This document shows positions 12,233-64,000 of a DNA stretch of 64,000 bases, one piece after another. The notes under the pieces are model-generated. The model saw only the letters and a program-made list of their open reading frames with translations, had not been told where the DNA came from and made no database searches. Source of the stretch: Myxococcota bacterium (lineage in GTDB: Bacteria > Myxococcota_A > UBA796 > JAFGLY01); contig JAJRWT010000046.1 in NCBI GenBank assembly GCA_024276675.1, positions 17,433 to 81,432 on the forward strand, in the 5' to 3' direction. The first letter of the stretch is position 1. The number at the start of each line of letters is the position of its first letter. The position numbers and the translations under genes were made by a program.

Positions 12233-12405
12233 GGAGAACCCCATAAGTCTAGTGTTTGAAAAAGTTGGCCCCCAGGTGCGTTGAGCAACAAAAAATCCTG
12301 GGGGGTAATCGTTTTTCCAGGCTATTCAAGATGCACTGAGGCAATCTTGAACTCTATGTCGCCCCCTGGAGTCTCCGCTCCCGGGGCGTAACCCCGGGGT
12401 TGGCG

Positions 12406-21416: not shown

Positions 21417-22541
21417 GTGTTGATCAGACCCCAGTTGCCTCGCTTCAGTCTCCTGGCCGCCCTGCTGCTCCTGCTTGCGTGGGTGGGACTGCCCTGCGAG
21501 CAGGCCCGGGCCGCCGAACCTTTCATCGCGTTCGAAAACGATGGCAGCGGAAACGCACCCGACTCCCGTTTCCAGTCGTGGCACGCCGAGTTGGAACCCT
21601 TTGGCAGCTACGGTGAAAGTTGGTTCTTCCTGGTGCAGGCCGACGACGGCGGAGTGCTCTTCGCACTTTCCTCCGTCACCAACCTGGGCCTGCGCACCTT
21701 CGACGGCAGCTACGACCTGGAATACTACGAACCCGACGGCACGGCCCACCGCGTCCACCAGGAGTGTCGCCGCGACCAGGTCAGGGGTTCCACCCAGAGC
21801 ATGGACATGTACGTGGGAGCCTCCCGTGTCTGGGGGGGCGGAAAAAGCTACCACATGAGCATCCAGGAAGGCGGCGTCGTGCTGGACCTGAACCTGGAAA
21901 ACGTCCTCTCTCCATACAAGTTCGGCGACGGCAAGGTCAGGTTCGGCGAAGATCTCAGCTCCGAGTGGACCCTGTCCCTGGATGCCCCCCGGGCCCGTTC
22001 CTCCGGCAGCTTGACCATCGACGGCAAGACCTTCGACCTGGCGGGCAACGCCTACCACGACCACGGCTGGGCCACCATCAAGCTTCCGGACTTCCTGCGC
22101 AAGTGGTTCACCTTGAGGATCTTCGACGAGAGCTACACCGTGGTGCTGCACCACCAGTACTTCACGGAGCGCTACGGCAAGGCCGACAACAAGTTCGGCC
22201 TGCTGGGGCGTGACGACCGCATCGTCGCCGCCACGCGGAACTTCCTCTTCACCCCCACCTCCTGGACCCGGCACAGTACCGGCAAGGATCTGCCGGCATC
22301 GGCGGAGCTGAGCATCAACGCGGGCGGCTACCAGGTACACGGGACCATCAGCGATCTTCGTCTGCTGGATGCCGTGGACGTCCTGGCCCAGTTGAGTTGG
22401 CCGGTACGAACCGCCATAAGGGCTTTCTACAGCGATGTCTGGCTCATTCGCCTCCTTGGTCGCTACGAGTTGGATGTGACCGATTCCACTGGCACCCGAC
22501 ACATCTCCGGCCAGGCCATCGTCGAAGCCAACTACTATTGA
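21417..22541 (+). CDS. secreted protein, unknown function
   Basis: GTG start after GAAAGGA. Signal peptide MLIRPQLPRFSLLAALLLLLAWVGLPCEQARA. The beta-rich sequence has a possible AttH/CrtC-like lipocalin flavour, which is not verifiable by eye. Confidence 0.6.
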   Translation: MLIRPQLPRFSLLAALLLLLAWVGLPCEQARAAEPFIAFENDGSGNAPDSRFQSWHAELEPFGSYGESWFFLVQADDGGVLFALSSVTNLGLRTFDGSYDLEYYEPDGTAHRVHQECRRDQVRGSTQSMDMYVGASRVWGGGKSYHMSIQEGGVVLDLNLENVLSPYKFGDGKVRFGEDLSSEWTLSLDAPRARSSGSLTIDGKTFDLAGNAYHDHGWATIKLPDFLRKWFTLRIFDESYTVVLHHQYFTERYGKADNKFGLLGRDDRIVAATRNFLFTPTSWTRHSTGKDLPASAELSINAGGYQVHGTISDLRLLDAVDVLAQLSWPVRTAIRAFYSDVWLIRLLGRYELDVTDSTGTRHISGQAIVEANYY

Positions 22542-22555
22542 TCCTGGCAGCCTTC

Positions 22556-24967
22556 ATGAGTCTTCTTCCCGACGCCTGGCCAATCGCCACCAGCAGCTCA
22601 TTCGCCGTGGGTGCCCGGGCTCGGCTCCTGCTCCTGGCTCTTGCCATCTCCTGCCAGACGGCAAAAGAAGATACCGTGGGCGCACCCAGCCTGCTGCCCG
22701 AAATAGACAGCTTGAGCATCGGGCCGCTGACATACCTGGACAGCAGGAGCGGTTCGGGCCTGGCATCCACCCAAGTCACCAACAATGGCAACAGCACGCT
22801 GCGTCTGCTGGAGTCCAACTTTGAAGGGGATGGTTCCAGCAAGATCGCCTTGCTGGAAAAACCCAACCCCGGTACCGACATCCCCCCCGGAGAAACCTTC
22901 CTCATCAAGGTGGGCGTGACCTCCAGCCTTGGGCAATGGTCCAGCAAGGTCTTCGAGCCCGAGCTGGTGATGGAGCTGGAGGTCATGAACGAGTTTTCCG
23001 CCGGTTGTGCCGGGACGACCCTGGAACCCAGCGGTCAATTCTACGAGCTGCGCATACCCATAGTGATGGACCTCGTCTGCGACATAGACGGCGATGGCCA
23101 GGACGCCTCGGAGTGTGGAGACGGTGATTGCGACGATACCGACCCGCAGATCAACGGCTATTCGCCAGAACTCTGCGACGGAATCGACAACGACTGTGAC
23201 GGCCATGTGGACAACGACGCCTGGGACGCCTCCCTTTGGTACAGCGACCAGGACTCCGACGGCTATGGCGACCCGGAACAGGCGATCCTGGACTGCCAGC
23301 ATGTGACCGGCCGCGTGGATGTTTCAGGTGACTGCGACGACTCCGATGCCAAGGTCAACCCCGATGCCACGGAACTCTGCGACGGAATCGACAACGACTG
23401 CGACTCCGAGATCGACGAAGCCGACGCCGCCGATGCAATCACCTGGTTCGCCGACGAGGACTCCGACGGCTACGGCAATCCTCACTCAACCACCACGGCC
23501 TGTGAGCCTCCATGGGGATTCGTTGAAGACGACCTGGACTGCGACGACGGGGATCCGCAGGTGAACCCCGACGCATTCGAGCTGAACGACGGCACCGACA
23601 ACAACTGCGATGGCGACCTGGACTTCATACGCCTCCCCAGGGCCGATGCCTCCATGCTGGGCGTCTCTCCAGGCGATGCCACCGGCAGGAGCGTATCTTT
23701 TGCTGGCGACCTGGACGGCGATGGGCTGGACGACATCCTGCTGGGCGCTCCAGGACTGTCCGGCAGGGGCGGGGCCTACCTGGTGGCGGGAACCTCGTGC
23801 GACGGCAGCGATGAGCTGTGCGGCGAACCCTTCGACCTGCCGGATTCAAGGGCGGTGTTCTCCGGCGCCGACGAGGGGGATCTATGTGCCGCGGCCCTGT
23901 CCTCCGCCGGTGATGCCGACGGCGACGGCCTGGACGACGTGCTCATCGGAGCACCTGGCGCAGATCTCGGGGGCTTGGATTCAGGGGCGGTCTACCTGCT
24001 GTACGGACCTCTGAGCGGCTCCATCGGACCGGCAGAGGCTTCCACGACGTTCTGGGGTGAAGAAGCGGGAGATGGAGCGGGCTCCGCCGTTGTCGGCGCC
24101 GGCGACCTGGACCTGGACGGGCGGGCTGACCTGTTGATGGGCGCCCCGAGAGCCAGCGGCGGGGCTCGCGCCGGTGGAGCCGTCTACCTGTTTCTGGGTT
24201 CCGGGCCGGGCGACGTGTCCCTGGGGGGAGCCGACGCTCTCCTGCTGGGCGATGCCCGGGGCGGCATGGCCGGCTTCAGCCTGGCGGCGGGCTTTGACGT
24301 GGACGGCGATGGCCTGGATGATTTCCTCGTGGGAGCACCGGGCGATGGCTTGACCGCTTCGCAGGCGGGTGCCGCCTACCTCGTGCCTGGCCCCCTGCCC
24401 CCTTGGTCAACGCTGGCCGATGCTGGAACCCGCATCCTGGGAGAGCAGGAGGGGGACAACGCTGGTTGGAGCGTTGCCGGCGCCGGCGACATCGATGGCG
24501 ATGGCCACGACGACCTGTTGATCGGAGCCCCCCAGGCCGAACCCGGGGGCGTCGCCTACCTGGTGCCTGGCAGCGTCGAACTTCCCTACCTTTTCAGGCG
24601 CCGCCTGTCGGGTGTGGGGATCCGCCTGGAAGGCGAGTCGGATGGAGACCAGGCGGGTTGGTCGGTTGATGGTGCCGGCGACCTGGACGCCGATGGATTC
24701 AACGACCTGGTGATCGCTGCACCCGGTCATGATCGGGAAGCCTACGATGCCGGTGCTGTCTACGTGCTGTTGGGGCCTGTTTCCGGCACCCTGGGCCTGG
24801 GGCTGGCCGACGTGGTACTCCTTGGCGACAGTGACGGCGATGCCGCCGGCTCCGATGTCGCCGGCTGGGGCGACCTGAACGGCGATGCGTCGCCGGATCT
24901 TCTACTGGGTGCCTCCGCCGATGTCGCCGGAAGCTCCGGTGCCGCCTATCTGCTGCTGGGTTGGTAG
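22556..24967 (+). CDS. FG-GAP repeat protein with three MopE-like metal-binding motifs
   Basis: ATG 22556. Three DCDDxDxxxNPxAxExCDGxDNDCD motifs, then many FG-GAP units (GDLDGDGLDDILLGAP, GDADGDGLDDVLIGAP, GDIDGDGHDDLLIGAP and others). Confidence 0.8.
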   Translation: MSLLPDAWPIATSSSFAVGARARLLLLALAISCQTAKEDTVGAPSLLPEIDSLSIGPLTYLDSRSGSGLASTQVTNNGNSTLRLLESNFEGDGSSKIALLEKPNPGTDIPPGETFLIKVGVTSSLGQWSSKVFEPELVMELEVMNEFSAGCAGTTLEPSGQFYELRIPIVMDLVCDIDGDGQDASECGDGDCDDTDPQINGYSPELCDGIDNDCDGHVDNDAWDASLWYSDQDSDGYGDPEQAILDCQHVTGRVDVSGDCDDSDAKVNPDATELCDGIDNDCDSEIDEADAADAITWFADEDSDGYGNPHSTTTACEPPWGFVEDDLDCDDGDPQVNPDAFELNDGTDNNCDGDLDFIRLPRADASMLGVSPGDATGRSVSFAGDLDGDGLDDILLGAPGLSGRGGAYLVAGTSCDGSDELCGEPFDLPDSRAVFSGADEGDLCAAALSSAGDADGDGLDDVLIGAPGADLGGLDSGAVYLLYGPLSGSIGPAEASTTFWGEEAGDGAGSAVVGAGDLDLDGRADLLMGAPRASGGARAGGAVYLFLGSGPGDVSLGGADALLLGDARGGMAGFSLAAGFDVDGDGLDDFLVGAPGDGLTASQAGAAYLVPGPLPPWSTLADAGTRILGEQEGDNAGWSVAGAGDIDGDGHDDLLIGAPQAEPGGVAYLVPGSVELPYLFRRRLSGVGIRLEGESDGDQAGWSVDGAGDLDADGFNDLVIAAPGHDREAYDAGAVYVLLGPVSGTLGLGLADVVLLGDSDGDAAGSDVAGWGDLNGDASPDLLLGASADVAGSSGAAYLLLGW

Positions 24968-50332: not shown

Positions 50333-53300
50333 TCATGACGTGGTCCCACCGCGCACTCCCAGTTTTGACTCCAGCTTTTCCATGGCCGCCAGGTAGCTGT
50401 CTATGCGGCCGAGATAGAAGGCCAGCGCACGGTCAAAGCGCTTCCCCACCAGGCCGTCCAGAAACATTCCGGAGATGGCCCGTTTCCGCAAGAGCACCCG
50501 TTGGACTCGGAGCACCATCTTTCGCTCCTCCACGCTGGCCTTCTCGAGAATCTCCCGAAACATGTCCCGCCCCCTCGGCTGGTGGAACCAGAAATACATC
50601 AGGTCCAGGGCGTTGGTGGTGAGCCGCTGGAAGAGGTCGTTGCCGTGACTCTCCAGCGATCGGGCAAGATCGTCGGGTCGTTGCAGCATCTCCAGCACGT
50701 CGTTTTCCGGGAAGATCACCGAAAGCTCCCCAAACACCTCGTTGAGACGATGTAGCTTTTCCTGGTAGTCCACGGCGCGCATGGTCATGTTTCGGCTCCG
50801 ATCCGCCAGGCCCTCTATCACCCCGGCCACCATGTCCGAAGCGAGCTTGGAGATGACAGTGGCCCAGAGCTGTAGCTGGGCATCGGCCACCGCCTCGGTG
50901 ATCCCGCGACTCATGGCCAGGTGGAGGAGGGCGGCGTTGAAGCCGATGGCGATGGGAATGGAGAGGACCGTGCGAAAGAAGTTACCCGCCGCGGCAGCCG
51001 TTGGGAGCCCCCGGAAGAGATTGTGGCTGCTGATATAGACTCCGTTGGCCAGTGCCATCACGGTGTAGAGCAGCAGCGGATTTGTCGCGGTGGTGATGCC
51101 CATGTGATTGGACAGGAGTTGCTGTTTCACCAGCAGGTCCAGCAGTGGCACCGAGAAGCCGGTGAAGAGCAACGAGTCGGCCACCCGGCTCCAGGACACG
51201 AAATCGCGCCATTTCAGCAAGGGGGATCGCACAAGCCCGCCGCCCCCGAGAACGGACTGTACGATGTTGCGAAGCCCGGTGATTCCGAACCAGATAGGAG
51301 CGCCCAGGTAGGCGAGGAGCCACCAATCCTTGGTGGTCAGGAACGTGAGGAAGGCCGGAACCAGGCCGATGACTACCTTGAGGATGTTCTTGATGGGTGT
51401 TCGCAGGTGACGCAGACTGGGCGTATCGCCCCTGTTGGCCACGTGAAGCGCGGTGCATGAAACCAGGCCGTTGTCGCTCTCTTCGGGATGGCCTCCCAAG
51501 GCCGCGATGTTCCCTCTTGGAGCGACATGTGTGGCGTTCTCCCGGGGGAACCACTCCACCCGGCGGTGATACCCCAGCGGCCTCAAGACCGGTGTGTGAC
51601 GCAGGAGATGAAATCCCAACCGCGTCAATGCACCTGTGCCGCCCTTGGGTACCGACAACACCCGCCGACACGCCACGGTGTGGACCGGAAGGAGGCGCCC
51701 CTCGCGTCTTACTTGCTTTCTGGCTCGCCACGGCAGGGTGGATACGGCCACCAAGCCCATGCCGAGGGAGTTCCGAGAGCGCCCCGTGGAATCACTCCCC
51801 AGCCGACTCTTGAGGTGCCCTTCGCGATAGAAACCGATCAACCGTGGAATATCCCGAATTATCTTCTTGATGGCGTGCGCACGATCCTCTCGGTCGGGAT
51901 GCTCGCTCGCCTCCACGCGCTCCAGTAGTGCCAGGCAAAGCCGCTTGGTTTCCAGGATGTTACCCCGGTTGATCACTCGCCTGACCCTACAGATCTGCTC
52001 CTGACGCTCGACCCCCTCGTCTGCCCAGTCCTTGAGGTTGAAGATCTCGATGTGGGTGATACGCCCCTCCGCCAGGTAGAGGATTTCCAGCACTTCTTCG
52101 GGCTCCAGGCCGGATGCATTGAGGATGGTGCGATTCCCACGGGGCGCGCCCTCAAAGCGGTCGAGAAGCGCGGGGATGTCGAGCCGCAAGAGTTCCGGGA
52201 CATGGTCGCCGTGGACCTGGAGCGCCGGGTCCGGAAGCTGTGGGTTGGCCTGCGTGGAGAGAAATCGCTCGGCGATGGTTTCCGGTACCATGCGATTCAT
52301 GGCATCCACCCGTTCTTCAGGGGAGATACCCGTGGTGGCGACGGCCTCGGCGCCTTTTCCCTGAAGCTCCGCCACGCGTCGCTCCAGGTGAGGCAGCAGC
52401 GAGGCGTGAATGAACTCGGCCAGGTGCAGGCGCGAGGTTTGTCCGGCCCCCACGAAAGCACGGAATGCGCTCTCTTCGAGGGGGGGGAGCGAGATGCCAA
52501 GCTCCGCGTTGAGTCCGGGAAGGTGGCGCTCGTTGAAGCTGCGTAGCAAGGCGTAGTACTGACGCTCACGGAAGCGGGAGACATCTCGCCCCTGCTCCAT
52601 GAGCTTGCGCGTGCCGGGTTCTTCCAGGAACGCTACGAAGTCTTCGTTGCTGTGAAAGCCCCGAGGGGCCCAGATGAGATGTACGTAACGGCCCCGGTAG
52701 AGGGCAGGGAGTTCCACTCCCGTGCGGAGATGAACGTCCATGATGTTGGCCGCTTCCAGCAGCTCGGATACCGCGTTTCGCGTGAAGTGGTTGTAGTAGA
52801 TCACCCCCAGGTGGCGGATCCCTTTGATCCATGCGTCCATGATCAGATGTGTCGGAGTCTTGCGCCCCTTGGAGTTGGCGTCGTGAACGTGGAAGTCGAA
52901 GGCCATCTGGTTCCACTCCTCCGGCATCTCCAGCAGATGGTGGCGACTCAGGGCCCAACGCACAAAACGAGGGCGACCAGCCGCGGCCGCCTTGAAGTCG
53001 TTGGCGAGTTCCAGTTGGCGCAAAGGGTCGTCCTGGCAGCGCACAAGCTCTTTCATGGTCTGGAGCAACACCCGGGCCGTGTTCATGCACATGGACGTGC
53101 TGTCGCTATGGAGTACTTCGGCTCTTACCGCACGCAATGTCCGAAGCCGCTCTTCGGCGCTCTCTCCCTCCAGGCTGCGGATCAAATCAAACACCGCCAC
53201 GGCGATGCGGAGCGACCTGGGGGCGGCAAGCTCCTTGATGCCCCGTGGATGCAAGGTAGGGGCGAAGAGACGTCGGAGCTGTTTTTTCTGCTTCTCCCCG

Positions 53301-53377
53301 CTCAAGAGGGGGTCGAGCACGTCCAAGAGATCAAACTCATCAGTGTCAAAATACAGAGGATGACGATGAAATTCCAT
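50333..53377 (-). CDS. large orphan protein: ~640-aa cytoplasmic region plus C-terminal polytopic membrane domain
   Basis: 1014-aa ORF with coding-like composition. Hydrophobic segments start near ILKVVIGLVPAFLTFL...YLGAPIWFGITGL. The last ~150 aa are soluble again. I recognise no family motif. Confidence 0.7.
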   Translation of the reverse strand: MEFHRHPLYFDTDEFDLLDVLDPLLSGEKQKKQLRRLFAPTLHPRGIKELAAPRSLRIAVAVFDLIRSLEGESAEERLRTLRAVRAEVLHSDSTSMCMNTARVLLQTMKELVRCQDDPLRQLELANDFKAAAAGRPRFVRWALSRHHLLEMPEEWNQMAFDFHVHDANSKGRKTPTHLIMDAWIKGIRHLGVIYYNHFTRNAVSELLEAANIMDVHLRTGVELPALYRGRYVHLIWAPRGFHSNEDFVAFLEEPGTRKLMEQGRDVSRFRERQYYALLRSFNERHLPGLNAELGISLPPLEESAFRAFVGAGQTSRLHLAEFIHASLLPHLERRVAELQGKGAEAVATTGISPEERVDAMNRMVPETIAERFLSTQANPQLPDPALQVHGDHVPELLRLDIPALLDRFEGAPRGNRTILNASGLEPEEVLEILYLAEGRITHIEIFNLKDWADEGVERQEQICRVRRVINRGNILETKRLCLALLERVEASEHPDREDRAHAIKKIIRDIPRLIGFYREGHLKSRLGSDSTGRSRNSLGMGLVAVSTLPWRARKQVRREGRLLPVHTVACRRVLSVPKGGTGALTRLGFHLLRHTPVLRPLGYHRRVEWFPRENATHVAPRGNIAALGGHPEESDNGLVSCTALHVANRGDTPSLRHLRTPIKNILKVVIGLVPAFLTFLTTKDWWLLAYLGAPIWFGITGLRNIVQSVLGGGGLVRSPLLKWRDFVSWSRVADSLLFTGFSVPLLDLLVKQQLLSNHMGITTATNPLLLYTVMALANGVYISSHNLFRGLPTAAAAGNFFRTVLSIPIAIGFNAALLHLAMSRGITEAVADAQLQLWATVISKLASDMVAGVIEGLADRSRNMTMRAVDYQEKLHRLNEVFGELSVIFPENDVLEMLQRPDDLARSLESHGNDLFQRLTTNALDLMYFWFHQPRGRDMFREILEKASVEERKMVLRVQRVLLRKRAISGMFLDGLVGKRFDRALAFYLGRIDSYLAAMEKLESKLGVRGGTTS

Positions 53378-55860: not shown

Positions 55861-56017
55861 TGCACAGGTCGGATCTCGGCCACCAAGCACGACGACCACC
55901 GAAGGGTTCCGGAACAAAAAATGGGTGTCGAGTTCCCACGATGTGAACCGGCCAGTTTCTTTTCCTTCTCGGGAACCTTCTGCACTCCTGTCTCGTAGGA
56001 AGTGCGGAGGCTCGGGA

Positions 56018-57613
56018 ATGGAAGAAACGACCCGACAGAGCTGTAGGGACTTTCGGAAGCGCGTGGGCGCGGACAGGACCATCTCTCCGGCCAACCAGGG
56101 CTCGCAAGCCCATGCCCGCACCTGCCTCGACTGTCGGCAGTGGCTCGCCCAGCTTGAAAACGTCCTGGCCCGTCTCCGCGAGGCCGAACCGCCTGCATTG
56201 CCAAAAGGCTTCCAGGCCAGCCTCGTGGAAAGACTCGGGAAAGGGGCCATCACGGCGACCAGGCCCGACTCCGTGGCTGCTTCTCGGGCACCGTTGGATG
56301 GAATTCTGGCTCGCCTGGCGGGGCTCCGGGGCCTGAGGCCCACCAGGAGCTTTGCCCTGGCCGCCACCTGCCTCGCGGCCGTGGCACTTTTGCTGTCAAC
56401 CCTGCCCACAGGCGTATCAACGACTCCGCGGGCGGTTCTTCTCAGCGTGGGCCTGGATTCTTCAGACACCAATTCCCAGGCGGTCTTCCATGTGCGATGG
56501 CCCGATGACCTGGTGCTGGCTGGCACAGCAGCCGAGCTGCCACCCACACACGCGCTTCGTTGGCGTCTCACTGCCGATTCCGGCGACCTTTCACGCCGTC
56601 TCATCGGACTCGAGGCCGTCACCCCCACTGCCAACGGGGAAATTCAGGTCAAGGCCCAGACGGAGGCATGGTCTTCAACGGCCAGCTTCCTGGTGACTTC
56701 CCATGGCGACGGGCTCCAGTTGTCACGCCTGGAAAACTCCCTGGGATACCGAGCAAACCCGCTTTCCCCCGAGTCCAGGCCAGGTGCGGTCCAGCATACC
56801 CGGCTCCTTCAACTTTCAACCAACCCAGAGGAGGACTTCATGTTCCAATCCATGCAAAAACTCGCGATTCTGGCCATGGTGGCCAGCCCGAGCCTGGCGC
56901 AGGCCAGCAACCAGCATCTCCAGGCCGACGCCCAACTGGTGCCATTGGCCACGGCCCAGCAGGTGAACAACTCCCAGGTAATGTTCCTGCGTGAAGCCGC
57001 AGAAGCCGCCAGGTACCAGTTGGACGCCTTCTTCGCCGGAACCGAGCCATCGGGGGGTACCGGCCCCAGTGACGACGGCACCGGCCCCAGTGACGACGGT
57101 GGCACACCGGATGAATCGGATGGTTCGGGGTGCATGGGATGTGATGGCGACATGGGCGACATGGGCGACATGGGCGGTGACCACGGCGACATGGGCGACA
57201 TGGGCGACATGGGCGACATGGGCGACATGGGCGACATGGGCGACATGGGCGACATGGGCGACATGGGCGACATGGGCGACATGCCCTGCCTGGATTCCGA
57301 GGAGCTTCCCTCCATGGGTGAGCATGGAGAACCGATGCACGAGATGGGTTCAATGGCCGGGCATGGGGAATCCGGTGAGATGGGCGACATGGGCGACATG
57401 GGCGACATGCACGGCACGGACGCAGGCATGAGTGGTGAATGCGACATGGGCATGGGGGGGGACCACTCTTCCATGATGGACTCCATGGACCACATGGAGG
57501 GCATGATGGAGGACGCCGACTGCTCCATGTCCGGTGACATGGGCGGCATGGGCGGAGGCGAAGACGAGGGCATGGGCGGCATGGGCGGTTCCGGCGGCAT
57601 GGGCGGCCACTGA
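56018..57613 (+). CDS. zf-HC2 anti-sigma-factor-like membrane protein continuous with a Met/Asp/Gly/His-rich C-terminal domain
   Basis: ATG 56018 after GCGGAGG. C-x22-H-x3-C-x2-C (CRDF...HARTCLDC) is the zf-HC2 pattern. One TM (FALAATCLAAVALLLSTLP). An in-frame internal ATG at 56840, preceded by GAGGAGG, opens a Sec-type signal (MFQSMQKLAILAMVASPSLAQA). The (GDM)n tracts follow. Confidence 0.6.
   Translation: MEETTRQSCRDFRKRVGADRTISPANQGSQAHARTCLDCRQWLAQLENVLARLREAEPPALPKGFQASLVERLGKGAITATRPDSVAASRAPLDGILARLAGLRGLRPTRSFALAATCLAAVALLLSTLPTGVSTTPRAVLLSVGLDSSDTNSQAVFHVRWPDDLVLAGTAAELPPTHALRWRLTADSGDLSRRLIGLEAVTPTANGEIQVKAQTEAWSSTASFLVTSHGDGLQLSRLENSLGYRANPLSPESRPGAVQHTRLLQLSTNPEEDFMFQSMQKLAILAMVASPSLAQASNQHLQADAQLVPLATAQQVNNSQVMFLREAAEAARYQLDAFFAGTEPSGGTGPSDDGTGPSDDGGTPDESDGSGCMGCDGDMGDMGDMGGDHGDMGDMGDMGDMGDMGDMGDMGDMGDMGDMGDMPCLDSEELPSMGEHGEPMHEMGSMAGHGESGEMGDMGDMGDMHGTDAGMSGECDMGMGGDHSSMMDSMDHMEGMMEDADCSMSGDMGGMGGGEDEGMGGMGGSGGMGGH
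57146..57283 (+). repeat. 9-bp tandem repeat GGCGACATG (3 + 11 copies split by GGCGGTGACCAC), codes (GDM)n
   Basis: Units counted directly: 57146-57172 (3 copies) and 57185-57283 (11 copies). A further block at 57374-57409 has 4 units, the first a variant. Confidence 0.95.
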
Positions 57614-57696
57614 CAGGCGCCGCGGTACTCCCTCCGCTCGTCAATACTCTCCAACGGTGAAGACTATCATCCACTGACCTCTGGCTCTTTTCAAGG

Positions 57697-57716
57697 GCCG
57701 GGGGTCTCGGCTTTTT
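57697..57716 (+). terminator. rho-independent terminator candidate
   Basis: GCCGGG-GGT-CTCGGC (6-bp stem including one G-T pair) followed by TTTTT, 84 nt after the stop at 57613. Confidence 0.4.
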
Positions 57717-57845
57717 CGGATACCTGTCCCCACGCTCGCCTGGCCCCTCGTTCTGCCTGGAACAAGTGGACAAATCCACTGGCCAAGACCCTGCTTGCAG
57801 CGTGTCGCGGTGGCCACTCTCCGTCCTGGTGGCAAATTGTTCGTT

Positions 57846-57861
57846 GGGCACGGCATTTGCT
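57846..57861 (+). promoter_or_regulatory. sigma-54-type promoter candidate (GGGCAC-N5-TTGCT)
   Basis: GGCAC at 57847-57851, exactly 5 nt, then TTGC at 57857-57860 followed by T. One mismatch to TGGCAC-N5-TTGCW (G for the first T). It lies about 77 nt upstream of the 57937 start. Confidence 0.4.
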
Positions 57862-57936
57862 CTCCATGGGAAGGGAAAAGGGCCAGGGTTGGCCATCGCC
57901 ACATCGTCCCCATGACTCCACAGAGGAAACCAGGTC

Positions 57937-59802
57937 TTGAAAAGCACGCGAACTCCACGAAAATCCTCTCGTCGCTTCAAACCCGAAAGCTCTTCCTCCA
58001 GGGATGGAGCATCCTGGCCGCATGTTCTTCTGCTCTTCCTGGGCCTTGGCCTGCTGTCTTCGTTTTCGCCTGCCTCCTGGGCCGTGGAGTCACGACAGTC
58101 CAACATCATGGAACAGGCACGCAGCCTGGTGGACCAGCAGCAGTTTGCCCAGGCGGTCCGGCTCCTGTCGCAGTTGGTCGAAGATGAGCCGGACAGTGCC
58201 GAAACCCGTTTCTGGCTGGCCTATGCCACCTATAAATCAGGTGCATTCCAGGAAGCCCTCGACGAGACATCGAGAGTCCTGGAACTCGAGCCGGACTGGG
58301 TGGACCCCCACTACCTGGCGGGGCTGGCGGCCTTCGGGGCGGGGCGCCCGGAGCTGGCCCGGGAGCATTTCCAATGGGTAGTGGCGCAGGCCGGACCTGC
58401 TGCCGACCTGGGGCGCTCTGCGGCTTTGCAACTGGCAAAGATCAGCCAGCGCCTGGGGTTGGCGAAGGCCAGGGAGCTGATCCGGAAGAAACGCTTCAAT
58501 GAAGCTGTTTCATTGCTGGATGATCTGCTCGCGGCGCAGCCGGACGACACGGACATGGCCTATCATCGAGCCTACGCCTGGTTTCGGATGCGCAAATACG
58601 AAACCGCCCTGCTGGGCTTCCGCGGGATTGTGGAGAGTCATCCCGACTACTACTGGGCTCGCTACATGGAGGCCATCTGCCTCGATCGCCTGGGGCAAAC
58701 TGCCGAGGCAGCCGACATCATGCGCTCCCTGCTGGACTGCTCCGATGTCGGAGTTTCCAGGGAAGCCAGGTCCGCCCTGGACTCCCTGGGCAACTTCGGC
58801 ACGACGAACCAGGAAAACGCCGGCCTGGGCTCCAGCGGGTCCATCTCCTGGCTTTCCGGGGGTAGATGGACGCTGCCCCTTTCAGTGGACATGGACTCCA
58901 ACCCGGCCTACATCCCCGAAAGCTCGTACGTAAAGGACGACGAAGCCGCCACGGGCTTTTCGCTTCAGCCGACGGGGGAGCTGCTCCTCCTGGACGGTGT
59001 ACGCTCCACCCTGGCCTTGGGGGCCGAGGGCATTCTGCGACTCTACCCCTGGGGCCCCGGAGAGTACGAACTTACGCAGATCTACTCCAATATCGAGTAT
59101 GGAACCCGTGGACGGGAATATCGGTTCTGGGCGGGCGTCGGCAGCGGTGTCTCCTGGCTGGGCTGGGACCTGTTCCTGGACTTGCAGGAGACATACCTGG
59201 GTGGTCACTGGATCCAGCACAGCAGGACTCGTAGCGTGGCGGCCATGGGTGCCTACAGGCGGAAGGCTCACCTGGAAGACTACCAGAACCTGGACGCACT
59301 GGGAGCATGGGGTCGGCTGGGCCAGCGGATAATGTTGTCACGCAGGGCCTACCTGGAACCGGGCTACTACTTCGAAACAGAAAACGCCGCTGCCTATTCC
59401 TTGTCCTGGTCCGGGACCCTTGACTCGGGAAGTGGATACGAGGCCCTCATCACGGCTGAAGCCAGCTTCTTCGGCCATGGCCCCCGCCTTGAAGCCGTCA
59501 TGGAGTTCCCCTGGCGGGAGTTGAGGCTGGACTGGAGCGCGGGTCTGTCCTGGCGCGGCTACGGGAAGCCCGAGATCCTGGTCTATGACGTGGATGGCGA
59601 GTCCTTCACCTACGAAGGCCAACGGCGGGACAGGCGCACCTGGCTGTACCTGGACAACTCCTTCCGGGCCGCGGGGCAGTTGTACCTTTTCGGCAGGTTC
59701 AGCGGGCTCTTCAACAGCTCCACCCTGTCAGGGGAGGACTGGCCCTCCGACAGATCCTACTCCAGGCGCCTGGTCTCGTTGGGGGTGGAGTTGCGTGGAT
59801 GA
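57937..59802 (+). CDS. TPR-repeat exported protein with beta-rich C-terminal domain
   Basis: TTG start after GAGGA. Basic N-region then LLLFLGLGLLSSFSPASWA. TPR-like helices (AETRFWLAYATYKSGAFQEALDETSRVLELEPDW...). The C-terminal ~300 aa are Gly/aromatic-rich strands. The stop overlaps the ECF sigma start. Confidence 0.65.
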   Translation: MKSTRTPRKSSRRFKPESSSSRDGASWPHVLLLFLGLGLLSSFSPASWAVESRQSNIMEQARSLVDQQQFAQAVRLLSQLVEDEPDSAETRFWLAYATYKSGAFQEALDETSRVLELEPDWVDPHYLAGLAAFGAGRPELAREHFQWVVAQAGPAADLGRSAALQLAKISQRLGLAKARELIRKKRFNEAVSLLDDLLAAQPDDTDMAYHRAYAWFRMRKYETALLGFRGIVESHPDYYWARYMEAICLDRLGQTAEAADIMRSLLDCSDVGVSREARSALDSLGNFGTTNQENAGLGSSGSISWLSGGRWTLPLSVDMDSNPAYIPESSYVKDDEAATGFSLQPTGELLLLDGVRSTLALGAEGILRLYPWGPGEYELTQIYSNIEYGTRGREYRFWAGVGSGVSWLGWDLFLDLQETYLGGHWIQHSRTRSVAAMGAYRRKAHLEDYQNLDALGAWGRLGQRIMLSRRAYLEPGYYFETENAAAYSLSWSGTLDSGSGYEALITAEASFFGHGPRLEAVMEFPWRELRLDWSAGLSWRGYGKPEILVYDVDGESFTYEGQRRDRRTWLYLDNSFRAAGQLYLFGRFSGLFNSSTLSGEDWPSDRSYSRRLVSLGVELRG

Positions 59803-60347
59803 CCTGGTTTCGCCGGAGACGACCGCGCACCGAACCAGGGGCCGGCGTGCAGGCCATGGAGCCCGAGGCCTATGCAGAGCTGTGCGCACCATACCAACGT
59901 CGGCTCTACCAGGTGGCGCTTGGCATGGCGGGCGACCCCGACCAGGCCGCCGATCTGGCCCAGGAGGCGCTGGTTCGTGGCTTCAGATCCCTGCACGGTT
60001 TCAAGCCAGGGGCCCCCCTCTACCCCTGGCTGTTGAGGATCATGCGCAACATCTGGATCGATGAACTGAAGTCGGCACGGGGCCGCCGGGAGGTTCCCAT
60101 GGAAAGGAGCATGGAGACTGCCGGTCATGCCGCGGACCCCCTGGCATCGGTCCTGGAGAGTGAACGTTCCGTTGCCCTGCACAGGGCCATAGCCAGCCTG
60201 CCGCCGGAGTTCGCCATGACCATCACCCTGTTCGATCTTCAGGGCATGAGCTACGAGGAAGTGGCCAGGGCAACGGGCGTGCCGGTGGGTACCGTGCGTT
60301 CGCGCCTGCATCGAGCCAGGGACAGGCTCCGGGTGCTGCTGGGGTAG
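59799..60347 (+). CDS. ECF-type RNA polymerase sigma-70 family factor
   Basis: Region 2 (DLAQEALVRGFRSLHGFKPGAPLYPWLLRIMRNIWIDELK) and region 4 HTH (MSYEEVARATGVPVGTVRSRLHRARDRL). The ATG overlaps the upstream TGA (ATGA). Confidence 0.9.
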   Translation: MTWFRRRRPRTEPGAGVQAMEPEAYAELCAPYQRRLYQVALGMAGDPDQAADLAQEALVRGFRSLHGFKPGAPLYPWLLRIMRNIWIDELKSARGRREVPMERSMETAGHAADPLASVLESERSVALHRAIASLPPEFAMTITLFDLQGMSYEEVARATGVPVGTVRSRLHRARDRLRVLLG

Positions 60348-60478
60348 CTCCCGGACATGAGGGGGGCGCGGAGGACGTCGCGGGCTCATTGCCATGAGCG
60401 GGTCCCTGAGGGAGGCCCCGTGTTGTAGAATGCCCGGGACCACACGATGTGGCGGCAAACCAGCACGGAGTTTCCCAG

Positions 60479-63400
60479 ATGCGCGTTCCAGAGATCCCCG
60501 CCTCCTGCCTTTCACTTTTTTCGTTGCTGCTGCTTTCGCTGCTCGTGTTCCGGACCCCGGTGGGCCAGGCCGCGCCCCTGGAAGTACCTGCTGAACTCCA
60601 ACCCTGGGTGCCATGGGTGCTCCAGGAGCACGACGATCTCGCTTGCGCGCTGGTGGAGCAGAGCAGAATCTGTGTCTGGCCTGGCTCGCTTCGCCTGGAG
60701 GTGGATCAGGACGGTGGGCGCTTCACCATGGAGGTCCTGCTGGACGCCGACAGGTGGGTGGTTCTCCCCGGGGGGGCCGGCAGGTGGCCCCAGGACCTGC
60801 GGGTGAACGGTGTGCCGGCCGTGGTGCTGGGCAACGACGATGTACCCGGAACTCCGCTGGAGAAGGGTTGGCACAGGATCACCGGTTCCTTCCTCTGGAA
60901 CGACATGCCCCAGGTCATGCAGCTTCCAGCTCGCCTGGCCCGTGTGGAGCTGCTGGTGGACGGGAAGAGGGTCCTCTGGCCCAAACTGGATCCGGGCAGC
61001 CACCAGCTTCGCCTGGGCCAGGGCCAGGTGGAGGACAGCCAGGAGAACCGCCTCGCCCTGGAAGTCTCCCGGCGAGTCGTGGACGGGGTGCCGGTGCAGG
61101 TGGAAACCAGGGTGATGATACGGGCCTCCGGACGTGCCCGGGAGCAGAACCTGGGCCAAGTGCCGGTACCCGGAACCCAGCCAGTGTCCCTGCAAGCAGA
61201 CCTTCCCGCACGTTTCACGCCGGAGGGCGATCTCGTGATCCAGGTGCGTCCTGGAACCTTCGGCCTCACCTTCCACGCCCTGCACACGGGGCCGGTGACC
61301 AGCCTGCGGGTGCCCGAAGGGACCGCGGCATGGCCCCGGCAGGAGTACTGGGTCGTGGAGAAGAACGAGAGGGTGCGGGCGGTGCAGTTGGAGGGTCCGC
61401 AAGCGGTGGACGCAGCAAGGACCCCGCTGCCCCAGGAATGGCGAAACCTGCCCGCCTTCATCATGGGGCCGGATGTGCCACTGGAGTTCAACGAGATCCG
61501 GCGTGGAGAGAGTGAACCTCCTCCCAACCAGTTGGAGCTGGACCGCGAGTTCTGGCTGGACTTTGACGGTGGAGCCATGACGGTGCGTGATACTTTCTCC
61601 GGCCAGTTGAGCCAGGGCTGGAGACTCGACATGTTGGCCCCCGGGCTCCTGGGTCATGTCGCCCAGGACGGCGTGGACCAGGTCATCACCCGTTCGGCCA
61701 ATGGCCTTGCGGGCGTGGAGCTTCGTAGCGCCGATCCCAACGTCGTCGCCGATTCGCGGCTCGATGCTTCTGCCAGGGTTTTCCCCGCGGTAGGCTGGAA
61801 GACGGACCTGCGGCGGCTCTCCGCCACTCTCAATCTACCGCCAGGGTGGACTCTGTTGGGGGGCCTGGGAATGGACAGCATGGAGGGGGCGCTCCTGGAG
61901 CAATGGAGCCTGTTCGATCTCTTCTTCGTCCTGGTGATTTCCATGGCGGTGTTTCGGATGGCGGGACCGGGCTGGGGGCTGCTGGCCCTGCTGGCCCTTG
62001 CCCTGGGGCGCCACCAGCCCCAGGCGCCAGGTTGGACCTGGGTATTCCTGCTTGTTTCCATGGCTTTCCAGCGTGTGGCCACTGCGGGTCGAGCGCGGTC
62101 CCTGGCGAGGGCCTGCCGCTGGATTTTTACCGCCTTGCTGCTTGTGTTCCTGTTGCCTTTCAGCCTGCGCCAGGTGCGGGTGGGCCTGTTCCCCGTGCTG
62201 GAGTTTCCCTGGCAGCAGGCCGGCGTCCAGGCACATGCAGTGGATGAAGACAGACTCGAAGAGACCAGAGCACCTCCCGTGCCAGAGGCAGCCCAGGGCA
62301 CACTGTCCCGGGACTTGCCCGACCTGTACGTCCTGGACTCTTCGGGCGGAATGAAAGGCCTGGCCAAGCGCAAGTCGAGATCCCAGGGCCTCCTCTCCGG
62401 GGGTGAAGAAGACGCCTCGTCGCTGGAGCACAAGGTCACCCTGCAATTCGATCCCGGTTCGGTGGCCAACACCGGTTTCGGCCTGCAGCGATGGTCATGG
62501 AAGAGCCACCACATTGGATGGTCCGGTCCTGTTTCCGCGGATCAGCAGATCAGGCTTTTTCTCATCGGACCCCGCGTGAACCTTGTACTCGCGTTCCTTC
62601 GGGTATCTCTGTTGCTGGCCCTGGCCCTTCGCCTGGCCGGGCTTGGCAGCCTGAAGCTGGTTCGCCGGCTTGCTGGGCCAGCGATACCCTTCTTCTGCCT
62701 GGGGGCGATGCTTCCCATCCTGCTGTCCGGCCGCGCCCTGGCCGCACCTTCCGTCGATCTTCTGGAACAACTGGAAAAGAAACTCACGGAATCCCCCCCT
62801 TGTCAGCCCAACTGCGTCGATGTCCCCCGCATGAAGCTGCAGGTCGCCGATGATGGGTTGCTCATGGAGGTCTGGGTCGATGCTGCCGTGGCCTCTGCCT
62901 GGCCCGTTCCAGGACCGGCAGCCACGTGGGTACCGCAGCAGGTGCTGGTGGACGGCGTGCAGGCCAGGGCCATGACCAGGCTGGATGGAGACTACCTGGC
63001 GGTGCGCCTGAATCCCGGGGTACACACGCTGCGCGTTTCTGGCCCTCTTCCGCCCGTCGACTCCGTCACGCTACGATTCGGCCTGCTACCCAGGATGCTG
63101 GAATGGAGCGGCGACGGATGGACCCTGGCGGGGCTGCATGTCGACGGAAGCGTCGAGAGAAGCGTGCAGATTACCAGGGCAATGGCCTCCTCGGCCGGAG
63201 GTCCGTCTTCCGAAAACCTCTTGCCGTGGATCCAGGTGAAACGCTTCGTGGATCTGGGCATCCCCTGGAAGACCAGGACCACGGTTCAACGTGTGGGACC
63301 CACCCGGAGTCCCCTCACCATCGAGGTGCCTCTCATCCCCGGCGAAGCCGTCATAGACGAAGGCCTGGAGGTGAAAGACGCCCGGGTGCTGGTATCCCTG

Positions 63401-64000
63401 GACAGGGAGCAGGAATCCGTCTCCTGGCTGTCAACCCTGGACTACACCGACCAGGTTGTGCTTGAGAGCCCGATGGGATCCTCCTGGACCGAGGAGTGGA
63501 CCGTGTCGTGCAGCCCCGTTTTCCGCTGTTCCTTCCACGGACCTGCCCCCCTGGAGCACGTGAAGGGCGGCGAATACCTGCCTCGCTGGTTGCCCTGGCC
63601 TGGCGAAAGCCTGGCGGTAGACGTGACCAGGCCGGACCCGGTGTCTGGGCAGACCATCACCATCGACTCCGCCCTGCTCCAGGTGACTCCCGGCAGGCGC
63701 CTGGCCGAGAGCAGCCTGGATCTCCTGGTACGCACCAGCCAGGGGGGGCAGCAGACCATCCACCTGCCACCCGGAGCCCACCTGCAGGGAGTGACCCTGG
63801 ATGGCAGGGCAAGTCCGTTGCAGGCCAGCGATGGCAAGCTGGTGATTCCTCTCCAACCGGGCGAACAGGCCATCCACCTCACCTGGCAGAGCCAGCACGA
63901 GCCCTCCTTCGTCTATCGAGTTCCCCGCCTGGACCTGGGAGCGTCGGCGGTGAATGCCACGGTGCAGGTTCGCCTTCCCGACGACCGCTGGATAGTCTTC
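60479..64000 (+). CDS. very large exported/membrane protein, unknown function (open at window end)
   Basis: Absent from the track because there is no stop in the window. ATG 60479 stays open in frame for 1174 codons to 64000. Signal peptide MRVPEIPASCLSLFSLLLLSLLVFRTPVGQA-AP. Central hydrophobic segments (LFDLFFVLVISMAVF, GLLALLALALG, WTWVFLLVSMAF, WIFTALLLVFLLPF, LVLAFLRVSLLLALAL, IPFFCLGAMLPILL). The listed track ORFs across 60.4-63.9 kb are all other frames. Confidence 0.7.
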   Translation, partial: MRVPEIPASCLSLFSLLLLSLLVFRTPVGQAAPLEVPAELQPWVPWVLQEHDDLACALVEQSRICVWPGSLRLEVDQDGGRFTMEVLLDADRWVVLPGGAGRWPQDLRVNGVPAVVLGNDDVPGTPLEKGWHRITGSFLWNDMPQVMQLPARLARVELLVDGKRVLWPKLDPGSHQLRLGQGQVEDSQENRLALEVSRRVVDGVPVQVETRVMIRASGRAREQNLGQVPVPGTQPVSLQADLPARFTPEGDLVIQVRPGTFGLTFHALHTGPVTSLRVPEGTAAWPRQEYWVVEKNERVRAVQLEGPQAVDAARTPLPQEWRNLPAFIMGPDVPLEFNEIRRGESEPPPNQLELDREFWLDFDGGAMTVRDTFSGQLSQGWRLDMLAPGLLGHVAQDGVDQVITRSANGLAGVELRSADPNVVADSRLDASARVFPAVGWKTDLRRLSATLNLPPGWTLLGGLGMDSMEGALLEQWSLFDLFFVLVISMAVFRMAGPGWGLLALLALALGRHQPQAPGWTWVFLLVSMAFQRVATAGRARSLARACRWIFTALLLVFLLPFSLRQVRVGLFPVLEFPWQQAGVQAHAVDEDRLEETRAPPVPEAAQGTLSRDLPDLYVLDSSGGMKGLAKRKSRSQGLLSGGEEDASSLEHKVTLQFDPGSVANTGFGLQRWSWKSHHIGWSGPVSADQQIRLFLIGPRVNLVLAFLRVSLLLALALRLAGLGSLKLVRRLAGPAIPFFCLGAMLPILLSGRALAAPSVDLLEQLEKKLTESPPCQPNCVDVPRMKLQVADDGLLMEVWVDAAVASAWPVPGPAATWVPQQVLVDGVQARAMTRLDGDYLAVRLNPGVHTLRVSGPLPPVDSVTLRFGLLPRMLEWSGDGWTLAGLHVDGSVERSVQITRAMASSAGGPSSENLLPWIQVKRFVDLGIPWKTRTTVQRVGPTRSPLTIEVPLIPGEAVIDEGLEVKDARVLVSLDREQESVSWLSTLDYTDQVVLESPMGSSWTEEWTVSCSPVFRCSFHGPAPLEHVKGGEYLPRWLPWPGESLAVDVTRPDPVSGQTITIDSALLQVTPGRRLAESSLDLLVRTSQGGQQTIHLPPGAHLQGVTLDGRASPLQASDGKLVIPLQPGEQAIHLTWQSQHEPSFVYRVPRLDLGASAVNATVQVRLPDDRWIVF

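Follow-up and report, generated by a model that had tools for sequence, protein, structure and literature searches.

Anatomy of the 531-codon reading frame

We analyzed an open reading frame (ORF) for a putative anti-sigma factor of a sigma factor with extracytoplasmic function (ECF), which lies on a 64,000-nucleotide stretch of contig JAJRWT010000046.1 from a Myxococcota bacterium. This entire stretch is referred to as the window, and coordinates without a locus name are positions in it. A single frame is open on the forward strand from an ATG at 56018 to position 57613 and encodes 531 amino acids, with no stop codon in its 1596 nt up to the terminal one (57611-57613). A GGAGG motif is found 7 nt 5' of the ATG, and the GC content at third codon positions (GC3) is coding-like along the whole ORF, with no compositional sign of a frame change. 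An ECF-type promoter, GGAAC-N17-CGTA in the context cgGGAAC...tcTCGTAgg, is located at 55972..55997 (+), 20 nt before the ATG. Its position supports 56018 as the start codon; a GTG at 55925 was rejected as start, as the conserved promoter would lie inside the extension and as the relatives align from the ATG at 56018. An earlier note on this DNA, made from the sequence alone, had left two readings for the frame: a one-piece anti-sigma factor with a Met-rich sensor tail, or two genes, one for an anti-sigma factor and one for a secreted Met-rich protein, that are fused or dually translated.

The relatives were obtained by an exhaustive phmmer search with residues 1-370 as query against 1.84 billion representative proteins, which returned only seven proteins, all of them 180-271 amino acids long and aligning exclusively with the N-terminal half (query positions 2-220). 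A word-indexed homologue search with this half gave nothing. The N-terminal half comprises residues 1-274 (56018..56839, +), aligns end to end with the stand-alone relatives, and has no stop codon at its end. It begins with a zinc-binding anti-sigma (ZAS) domain (56018-56257, +) that carries the zinc-finger motif C9-x22-H32-x3-C36-x2-C39. The four ligands are invariant in all eight members of the family alignment, as is an LP-GF motif. Hydropathy analysis revealed one hydrophobic helix (residues 111-131; transmembrane helix at 56348-56410, +), and the AlphaFold2 model places a helix at residues 110-127. This model is of low confidence, with a mean predicted local distance difference test (pLDDT) score of 55.7, and shows four helices in residues 2-79, the transmembrane helix, a periplasmic domain rich in beta structure, and disorder in the tail (residues 245-274); a Foldseek search with it gave meaningless matches. 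From the secondary structure in this model we delimited the beta-rich periplasmic domain (56411-56749, +) and a disordered linker (56750-56839, +). The motif and the single transmembrane helix are thus present where the earlier note had placed them, but the extracytoplasmic stretch between the helix and the internal methionine, put there at about 190 residues, is actually about 143 residues long.

The assignment as an anti-sigma factor is based on the family profile and not on a direct zf-HC2 match of the window sequence. The profile of the N-terminal half matched RsiW (5wuq_C) over positions 7-81 with E=1.3e-8 and ChrR (2q1z_B) with E=2.9e-4, and the Pfam model zf-HC2 (PF13490) matched four of the eight family members, the best at 7.7e-8. 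The window ORF itself had no zf-HC2 match even at E<=1, and with the NCBIfam model NF052375 the window protein scored 21 bits against a cut-off of 100. The zf-HC2 label given previously therefore holds for the class of protein, by virtue of the family profile and the four relatives, but not as a Pfam match of this sequence. Altogether, it is well supported by sequence comparison that residues 1-274 represent a complete class I (ZAS), RsiW-like single-pass anti-sigma factor.

The C-terminal half (residues 275-531; 56840..57613, +) begins with features of a gene start. A Shine-Dalgarno sequence, GAGGAGG (56828-56834, +), is separated by a 5-nt spacer from an in-frame ATG at 56840, and the RNA around this internal start is unstructured (z = +1.06). 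The ATG opens MFQSMQKLAILAMVASPSLAQA, followed by SN, which reads as a Sec-type signal peptide with intact n-, h-, and c-regions and an AQA cleavage site before the serine (56840-56905, +); this signal peptide was judged by eye. In the hydropathy analysis, the core of the signal peptide was not scored as a second transmembrane helix because of its short length. A conserved mature N-terminal segment (56906-57064, +) and a Met/Asp/Gly/His low-complexity tail, defined by composition (57065-57610, +), follow. Glycine makes up 30%, methionine 23%, aspartate 18%, histidine 5%, and cysteine 3% of the last 162 residues of the tail, and its five cysteines include one CxxC motif (CMGC). The whole half contains 22 MxxM motifs and has a net charge of -50. 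The internal start with its own Sec signal and the (GDM)n-type domain could thus both be confirmed at the positions given for them before. According to Tandem Repeats Finder, a perfect tandem repeat with a 9-bp unit (GGCGACATG, 15 copies; 57146-57283, +) encodes the (GDM)n run and is accompanied by shorter repeat arrays at 57380-57409 and 57569-57607 and by a two-copy 21-bp repeat at 57059-57099 (all +). Two minus-strand ORFs, 56809-57654 (281 amino acids) and 56838-58109 (423 amino acids), overlap the repeat region and translate into Pro/Met/Ser-rich or Cys/Arg/Pro-rich sequences. We rejected them as genes and regard them as shadow frames of the 9-bp repeat.

The stop/start junction and the proposed fusion

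As the two halves could represent one gene or two, the earlier note had proposed to compare orthologs for a stop codon between them. The contigs or loci of the relatives are designated here by L-numbers, and five independent loci were informative in this respect (L001, L036/37, L038-40, L041, and L122-124). In all five, a stop codon separates the anti-sigma gene from a second gene, and the product of this second gene is in every one of them a low-complexity protein that begins with a signal peptide. In L001, the TGA of a 271-amino-acid anti-sigma gene overlaps the ATG (aaaGGAGGttcggtATGA) of a separate gene for 334 amino acids (L001:6813-7817), whose product has a signal peptide, is rich in Met, His, Gly, and Asp, and ends with ...GHMGGGGGH; the C-terminal half in the window is the positional homologue of this gene. 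The same ATGA overlap is found in L036/37 and L041, a TGATG junction in L038-40, and a stop codon followed by a 19-nt gap in L122-124. A GGAGG or AGGAG motif precedes the second ATG by 5-8 nt in L001, L036/37, L038-40, and L041. At the corresponding position, the window reads GAGGAGGacttcATGt, in frame.

Both sides of this junction could be aligned with separate genes. The N-terminal half ends (...PEEDF, residue 274) where the relatives end and remains alignable as far as the junction without a change of frame. For the other side, BLASTP fails on the two Met-rich proteins due to its composition correction, and we therefore used a shuffle-tested Smith-Waterman alignment of the non-repetitive mature segment. 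This segment, LQADAQLVPLATAQQVNNSQVMFLREAAEAAR, aligned with LRVGAEVVPLAEAEDANRDAAEFLLLAVEKGR of L001 with a score of 56, compared to 20 +/- 3.7 for shuffled sequences (0/2000 reached it; z ~10). The two proteins are also alike in being Met/His-rich and in having a (G/H/M)-rich tail at the end. Neither of the two alternative frames stops near 56840, as they end only at 56966 and 56994. Since the tail of the N-terminal half is aligned in the present frame and since the other frames have no stop nearby, the change most likely occurred at the junction itself, where an event of 1-2 nt would suffice. A further locus, L002 (family member P0002; L002:6001-6757 and L003), was not used as junction evidence, as the protein is cut off at 186 amino acids with unrelated sequence thereafter. 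Its anti-sigma gene ends inside the periplasmic domain, beside a CusCBA-like pump, and may be disrupted.

As five relatives keep two genes with a stop codon between them, we read the window ORF as an in-frame fusion at the stop/start junction. In full, we propose that it arose from two ancestrally separate, translationally coupled genes of an ECF cassette, that it gives rise to two products, and that the Met-rich part binds a soft metal; we assign a probability of roughly 60% to this reading as a whole. The first gene (residues 1-274) would encode a protein that holds the ECF sigma factor encoded at 59799 via its cytoplasmic zinc-finger domain. The second (residues 275-531) would have kept its own ribosome-binding site, ATG, and Sec signal and would encode an acidic, disordered periplasmic protein rich in Met, Asp, Gly, His, and Cys. 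As the stop/start junction lacks its stop codon, the frames coincide, and the start of the second gene is kept, two products are to be expected: a read-through anti-sigma factor of 531 amino acids whose Met-rich region is tethered on the periplasmic side, and a free secreted protein from internal initiation. The observed part of this explanation comprises the anatomy of the ORF, the separate genes to which each half is homologous, the synteny of the cassette, and the promoter motif. Sigma binding, export, the formation of two products, and metal binding are what we infer from it.

In principle, the 531-amino-acid protein could also be the main product, with the tethered Met-rich tail as periplasmic input and the internal start as a relic. 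The absence of a stop codon in 1596 nt and the coding-like GC3 across the junction fit this idea well. Moreover, as the core of the former signal peptide is too short for a second transmembrane helix, the acidic tail would stay periplasmic, near the anti-sigma factor's own domain, and fused neighboring genes often mark interacting partners. However, a perfect Shine-Dalgarno sequence, the ATG, and an intact signal peptide with its AQA site are all retained, and the RNA there is unstructured. The five informative relatives all encode two proteins, and among the 1.84 billion representatives there is no family member longer than 271 amino acids and hence no other fused one. We thus consider the one-piece sensor unlikely. 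Of the two readings offered previously, it is the fusion or dual translation that is favored by the comparison.

Points against the proposal and the question of metal binding

Several observations weigh against the proposal, some of them concerning the fusion and others the metal. The fusion was seen only once, and no genome of a close relative was found, the best UvrB identity being 65% with a metagenome-assembled genome (MAG) of the Polyangiaceae. When the target ORF, the sigma gene, the gene for a tetratricopeptide repeat (TPR) protein downstream, and the upstream gene were looked up by exact match, no indexed contig was found, and the target protein was absent from both protein collections. 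As the arrangement is unique in comparison to the seven family members, and as a lineage without close relatives, with 65% UvrB identity to MAGs at best, suggests a metagenome-assembled genome, it could be argued that the junction is an assembly or sequencing artefact. The true genome would then have the usual overlap, for example TTCTGATG, with one or two junction bases wrong or missing here, and a change of 1-2 nt would indeed restore a junction of the L038 type. Against this view, the alternative frames have no stop codon near 56840 but only at 56966 and 56994, and the alignment of the tail of the N-terminal half keeps the present frame as far as the junction, which speaks against an upstream frameshift. 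There is also no homopolymer at the junction. An artefact therefore appears quite improbable to us.

With respect to the metal, the C-terminal half has no match to any Pfam or NCBIfam family beyond spurious collagen-like ones, the periplasmic domain of the anti-sigma factor has no conserved His, Met, or Cys in the family alignment, and no metal-resistance genes were found near the locus within the window. The secreted partners encoded at L038:7717-8460, L041:1370-2197, and L123:1833-2318 are rich in Lys and Arg, carry net charges between +13 and +30, and contain hardly any Met or His. As these partners are of such a composition, metal binding cannot be the function of the whole family, judged by sequence. 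What appears to be common to the family, on the same grounds, is a secreted disordered protein beside an anti-sigma factor, not a Met-rich protein. The soft-metal composition occurs only in the branch of the window and L001, where the partners (56840-57613 and L001:6813-7817) are of an acidic, Met/His-rich flavor with net charges of -37 to -50. The earlier note had named a non-conserved Met-rich region as a finding that would count against its view. Position and architecture of the region are in fact kept, but of the relatives only the closest, L001, has the same Met/His-richness, and the three more distant partners are Lys/Arg-rich.

Nevertheless, on circumstantial grounds and by analogy, it is plausible that the Met-rich half binds soft metals such as Cu(I) or Ag(I). 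L001 adjoins two genes for YHS-domain proteins and a VKOR/DsbA gene, and L002 adjoins a CusCBA-type pump with an HMBD domain as well as a His-rich YHS-like lipoprotein. In L001, the Met/His-richness is reached via other motifs, including 15 MH dipeptides, and there is no DNA repeat in common with the window; the difference in motifs and DNA repeats argues against a pure drift by slippage. The ions would be bound through the MxxM motifs, His, and CxxC, and the protein would serve as a periplasmic buffer.

An account of the C-terminal half that does without metal has to be weighed here. It could be a drifting, disordered secreted protein shaped by repeat slippage, or its methionines could serve as an oxidant sink that is linked to a redox-sensitive ZAS domain. 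The composition is not conserved, with Lys/Arg-rich partners in three relatives, and the (GDM)n run as a perfect 9-bp repeat of 15 copies indicates a recent product of slippage. The lack of metal genes in the window points in the same direction. Oxidative stress is a signal for ZAS anti-sigma factors such as RsrA and ChrR, and ChrR matches the family profile. On the other hand, L001 is independently Met/His-rich with other motifs and lies beside YHS-domain genes, L002 lies beside the CusCBA-like pump, and the regular MxxM motifs, His, and CxxC of the window tail are classical ligand sets for Cu(I) and Ag(I). With regard to function, which is the axis to which this estimate applies, we see a metal-free role as possible but doubtful.

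On a more speculative level, the secreted disordered proteins could act as 'bait' that constitutes the input of the anti-sigma factor, in a new type of ECF module in which the composition of the bait sets what is sensed or absorbed. Acidic baits rich in Met, His, and Cys would handle soft metals, and Lys/Arg-rich ones would handle polyanions or membrane-active agents. If this were true, the fusion would be a natural 'Rosetta stone' that joins the bait and the periplasmic domain of the anti-sigma factor in one unit, and the 9-bp repeat would provide a rapidly adjustable binding capacity. We give this generalization little credence at present.

The cassette and its relation to known systems

The fused ORF belongs to a cassette with a conserved promoter motif, GGGAAC-N17-TCGTA, which is found just 5' of the first cassette gene in six independent loci. 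Besides the window, it occurs at L001 5955-5980, L002 5956-5981, L038 6256-6281, and L041 580-605, and L123 has a variant with N16-CGTC at 435-459. The 64-kb window contains two matches to the motif compared to 0.47 expected. As the conserved promoter is of the ECF type, we assume autoregulation, in which the sigma factor of the cassette probably activates the unit. With this motif, the regulon of the sigma family could also be delimited. No Rfam element and no plasmid homologues were found.

The ECF sigma factor (59799..60347, +; 182 amino acids) has the Pfam domains Sigma70_r2 and r4_2, and its start overlaps the stop codon of the TPR gene. Its identity with the sigma factors of L001 and L038 is 45% and 42%, respectively. 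In L038-40, the homologous sigma gene heads the cassette, and in L041 and L122-124 an ECF sigma gene is located directly upstream of the anti-sigma gene. That homologous sigma factors are linked in L001 and L038-40 to the same family of anti-sigma factors, and that ECF sigma genes have this position in L041 and L122-124, supports the earlier suggestion that the sigma factor at 59799 is the partner. The assignment of 59799-60347 as the likely partner of the anti-sigma half is thus well supported by gene linkage, from which we infer the binding. By contrast, the analogy to the copper-responsive CorE that had been drawn does not apply, as the window sigma factor lacks a Cys-rich extension and comes with an anti-sigma factor. 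L038 (also L039 and L040) has an additional lipoprotein-like low-complexity gene between sigma and anti-sigma (L038:6203-6901), whose product is rich in Gln, Asn, Gly, and Asp and contains a CCC motif, and which has the conserved promoter motif upstream.

Between the fused ORF and the sigma gene lies the gene of a putatively secreted TPR protein (57937..59802, +; 621 amino acids), which was recognized by Pfam TPR matches and is 37% identical to the product of L001:7824-9473 (E=3e-68). It also aligns with proteins of L038, L039, and L041. The downstream order of TPR and sigma genes in L001 is the same as in the window, and a TPR gene follows the gene pair in L001, L038-40, and L041, the three loci whose downstream sequence is long enough, but not in L122-124. 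The C-terminal approximately 320 amino acids have no Pfam match and no match to a PDB profile; a word-indexed search with this domain gave nothing, and a scan of genome contigs with the TPR alignment gave no relative. AlphaFold2 predicted the TPR part confidently, with pLDDT values below 40 for residues 300-621. A metagenome scan had yielded L004-L035, but these encode generic TPR proteins, in which the search patterns fell in the TPR repeats, and were not used. The deposited TPR protein (P0008, 564 amino acids) is without the first 57 residues of the ORF, which begins with a TTG at 57937. As these residues hold the sole signal-peptide-like segment of the protein (HVLLLFLGLGLLSSFSPASWA), translation may start farther upstream than deposited.

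The fused ORF and the TPR gene are separated by 323 nt (57614-57936), whereas the corresponding gap in L001 is only 6 nt. A terminator-like hairpin of 14 pairs with a T-run (57676..57716, +) begins 63 nt after the stop codon of the ORF, and an imperfect 16-bp repeat is found at 57723-57760 within the gap. The cassette may be split into two transcription units at this gap.

Directly after the sigma gene, an ORF of more than 1175 amino acids (60473-64000, +) runs off the end of the window. It has a signal-peptide-like start and several hydrophobic segments, no Pfam match, and no GGAAC...CGT motif upstream; the sigma factor might control it. Farther away, an ORF for 1014 amino acids (50333-53377, -) matches no Pfam family, has several C-terminal hydrophobic segments, and shows weak sub-threshold NCBIfam matches (nucleoside bisphosphate phosphatase, RNase RNM) near residues 158-237. 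Large proteins of the secreted type are encoded at 12400-14922 (+) and 22397-24967 (+); besides trypsin-like or FG-GAP domains, they contain repeats of the MopE-like 'putative metal-binding motif'.

Among the switches with which bacteria respond to envelope stress, pairs of ECF sigma and anti-sigma factors form the largest class, and for most of them the input signals are not known. With seven representatives in 1.84 billion proteins, the locus belongs to a rare, undescribed family of ECF cassettes, and there is no Pfam model for its periplasmic domain, its secreted partner, or the C-terminal domain of its TPR protein. The fusion offers the testable hypothesis that the anti-sigma factor and the secreted protein act together, and the Met- and His-rich variants may represent a new route to the sensing or buffering of copper or silver in the periplasm. 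For annotation, the apparent single long protein is better entered as two genes.

Several known systems can be compared to this cassette. The TPR neighbor resembles BcsC, PgaA, and Slam, which combine TPRs with an outer-membrane barrel, in its signal-peptide-like N-terminus, its TPR domain, and a sub-threshold match to the Slam TPR. In contrast to these proteins, its C-terminal 320 amino acids are without Pfam or PDB match, and a barrel is only a guess. With RsiW/sigma-W of Bacillus subtilis (PDB 5WUQ), the anti-sigma half shares the four-helix anti-sigma domain with the C...H-x3-C-x2-C motif, the single-pass topology with the N-terminus inside, a small extracytoplasmic domain, and the linked ECF sigma factor. 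The promoter type is also alike, as the sigma-W consensus is of the GAAAC/GGAAC-N16-17-CGTA type. However, the similarity to RsiW is confined to the anti-sigma domain, and the periplasmic domain in the window is unrelated to that of RsiW, which is controlled by regulated proteolysis (PrsW/RasP). In addition, RsiW is neither fused to nor encoded together with a secreted disordered partner.

A precedent for an anti-sigma factor with a separate periplasmic metal sensor is CnrYXH of Cupriavidus metallidurans (PMC6851896). The gene order of anti-sigma factor, periplasmic partner, and sigma factor is comparable, as is the notion of a separate periplasmic metal-binding protein that communicates with the periplasmic end of the anti-sigma factor, and the Met-rich protein could possibly feed back on the periplasmic domain of the anti-sigma factor as CnrX does on CnrY. 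CnrX and CnrY nevertheless have no sequence similarity or family match to the window proteins. CnrY is a short class II anti-sigma factor and the window protein a class I ZAS factor, and CnrX is a folded, membrane-anchored four-helix dimer, whereas the partner in the window is predicted to be disordered and secreted. Unlike CnrYXH, the window locus has no adjoining efflux pump.

Parallels to the proposed function of the C-terminal half are found among the disordered, Met/His-rich binders of copper and silver, namely the periplasmic 'molecular sponges' SilE and PcoE (PMC5008109) and the periplasmic N-terminal domain of PcoB (PMC12509749). Like these, the C-terminal half consists of a signal peptide followed by disordered Met/His-rich sequence and is predicted to be periplasmic, and in SilE/PcoE as well as here the sequence is poorly conserved while the chemistry of the ligands is kept. 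SilE and PcoE are not homologous to it, as judged by the lack of a Pfam or NCBIfam match, and the window tail is far richer in Gly and Asp and has regular MxxM motifs instead of HxxM/MxxH. Finally, SilE and PcoE belong to sil, pco, or cus operons, whereas the window protein is tied, and in this case fused, to an ECF anti-sigma factor.

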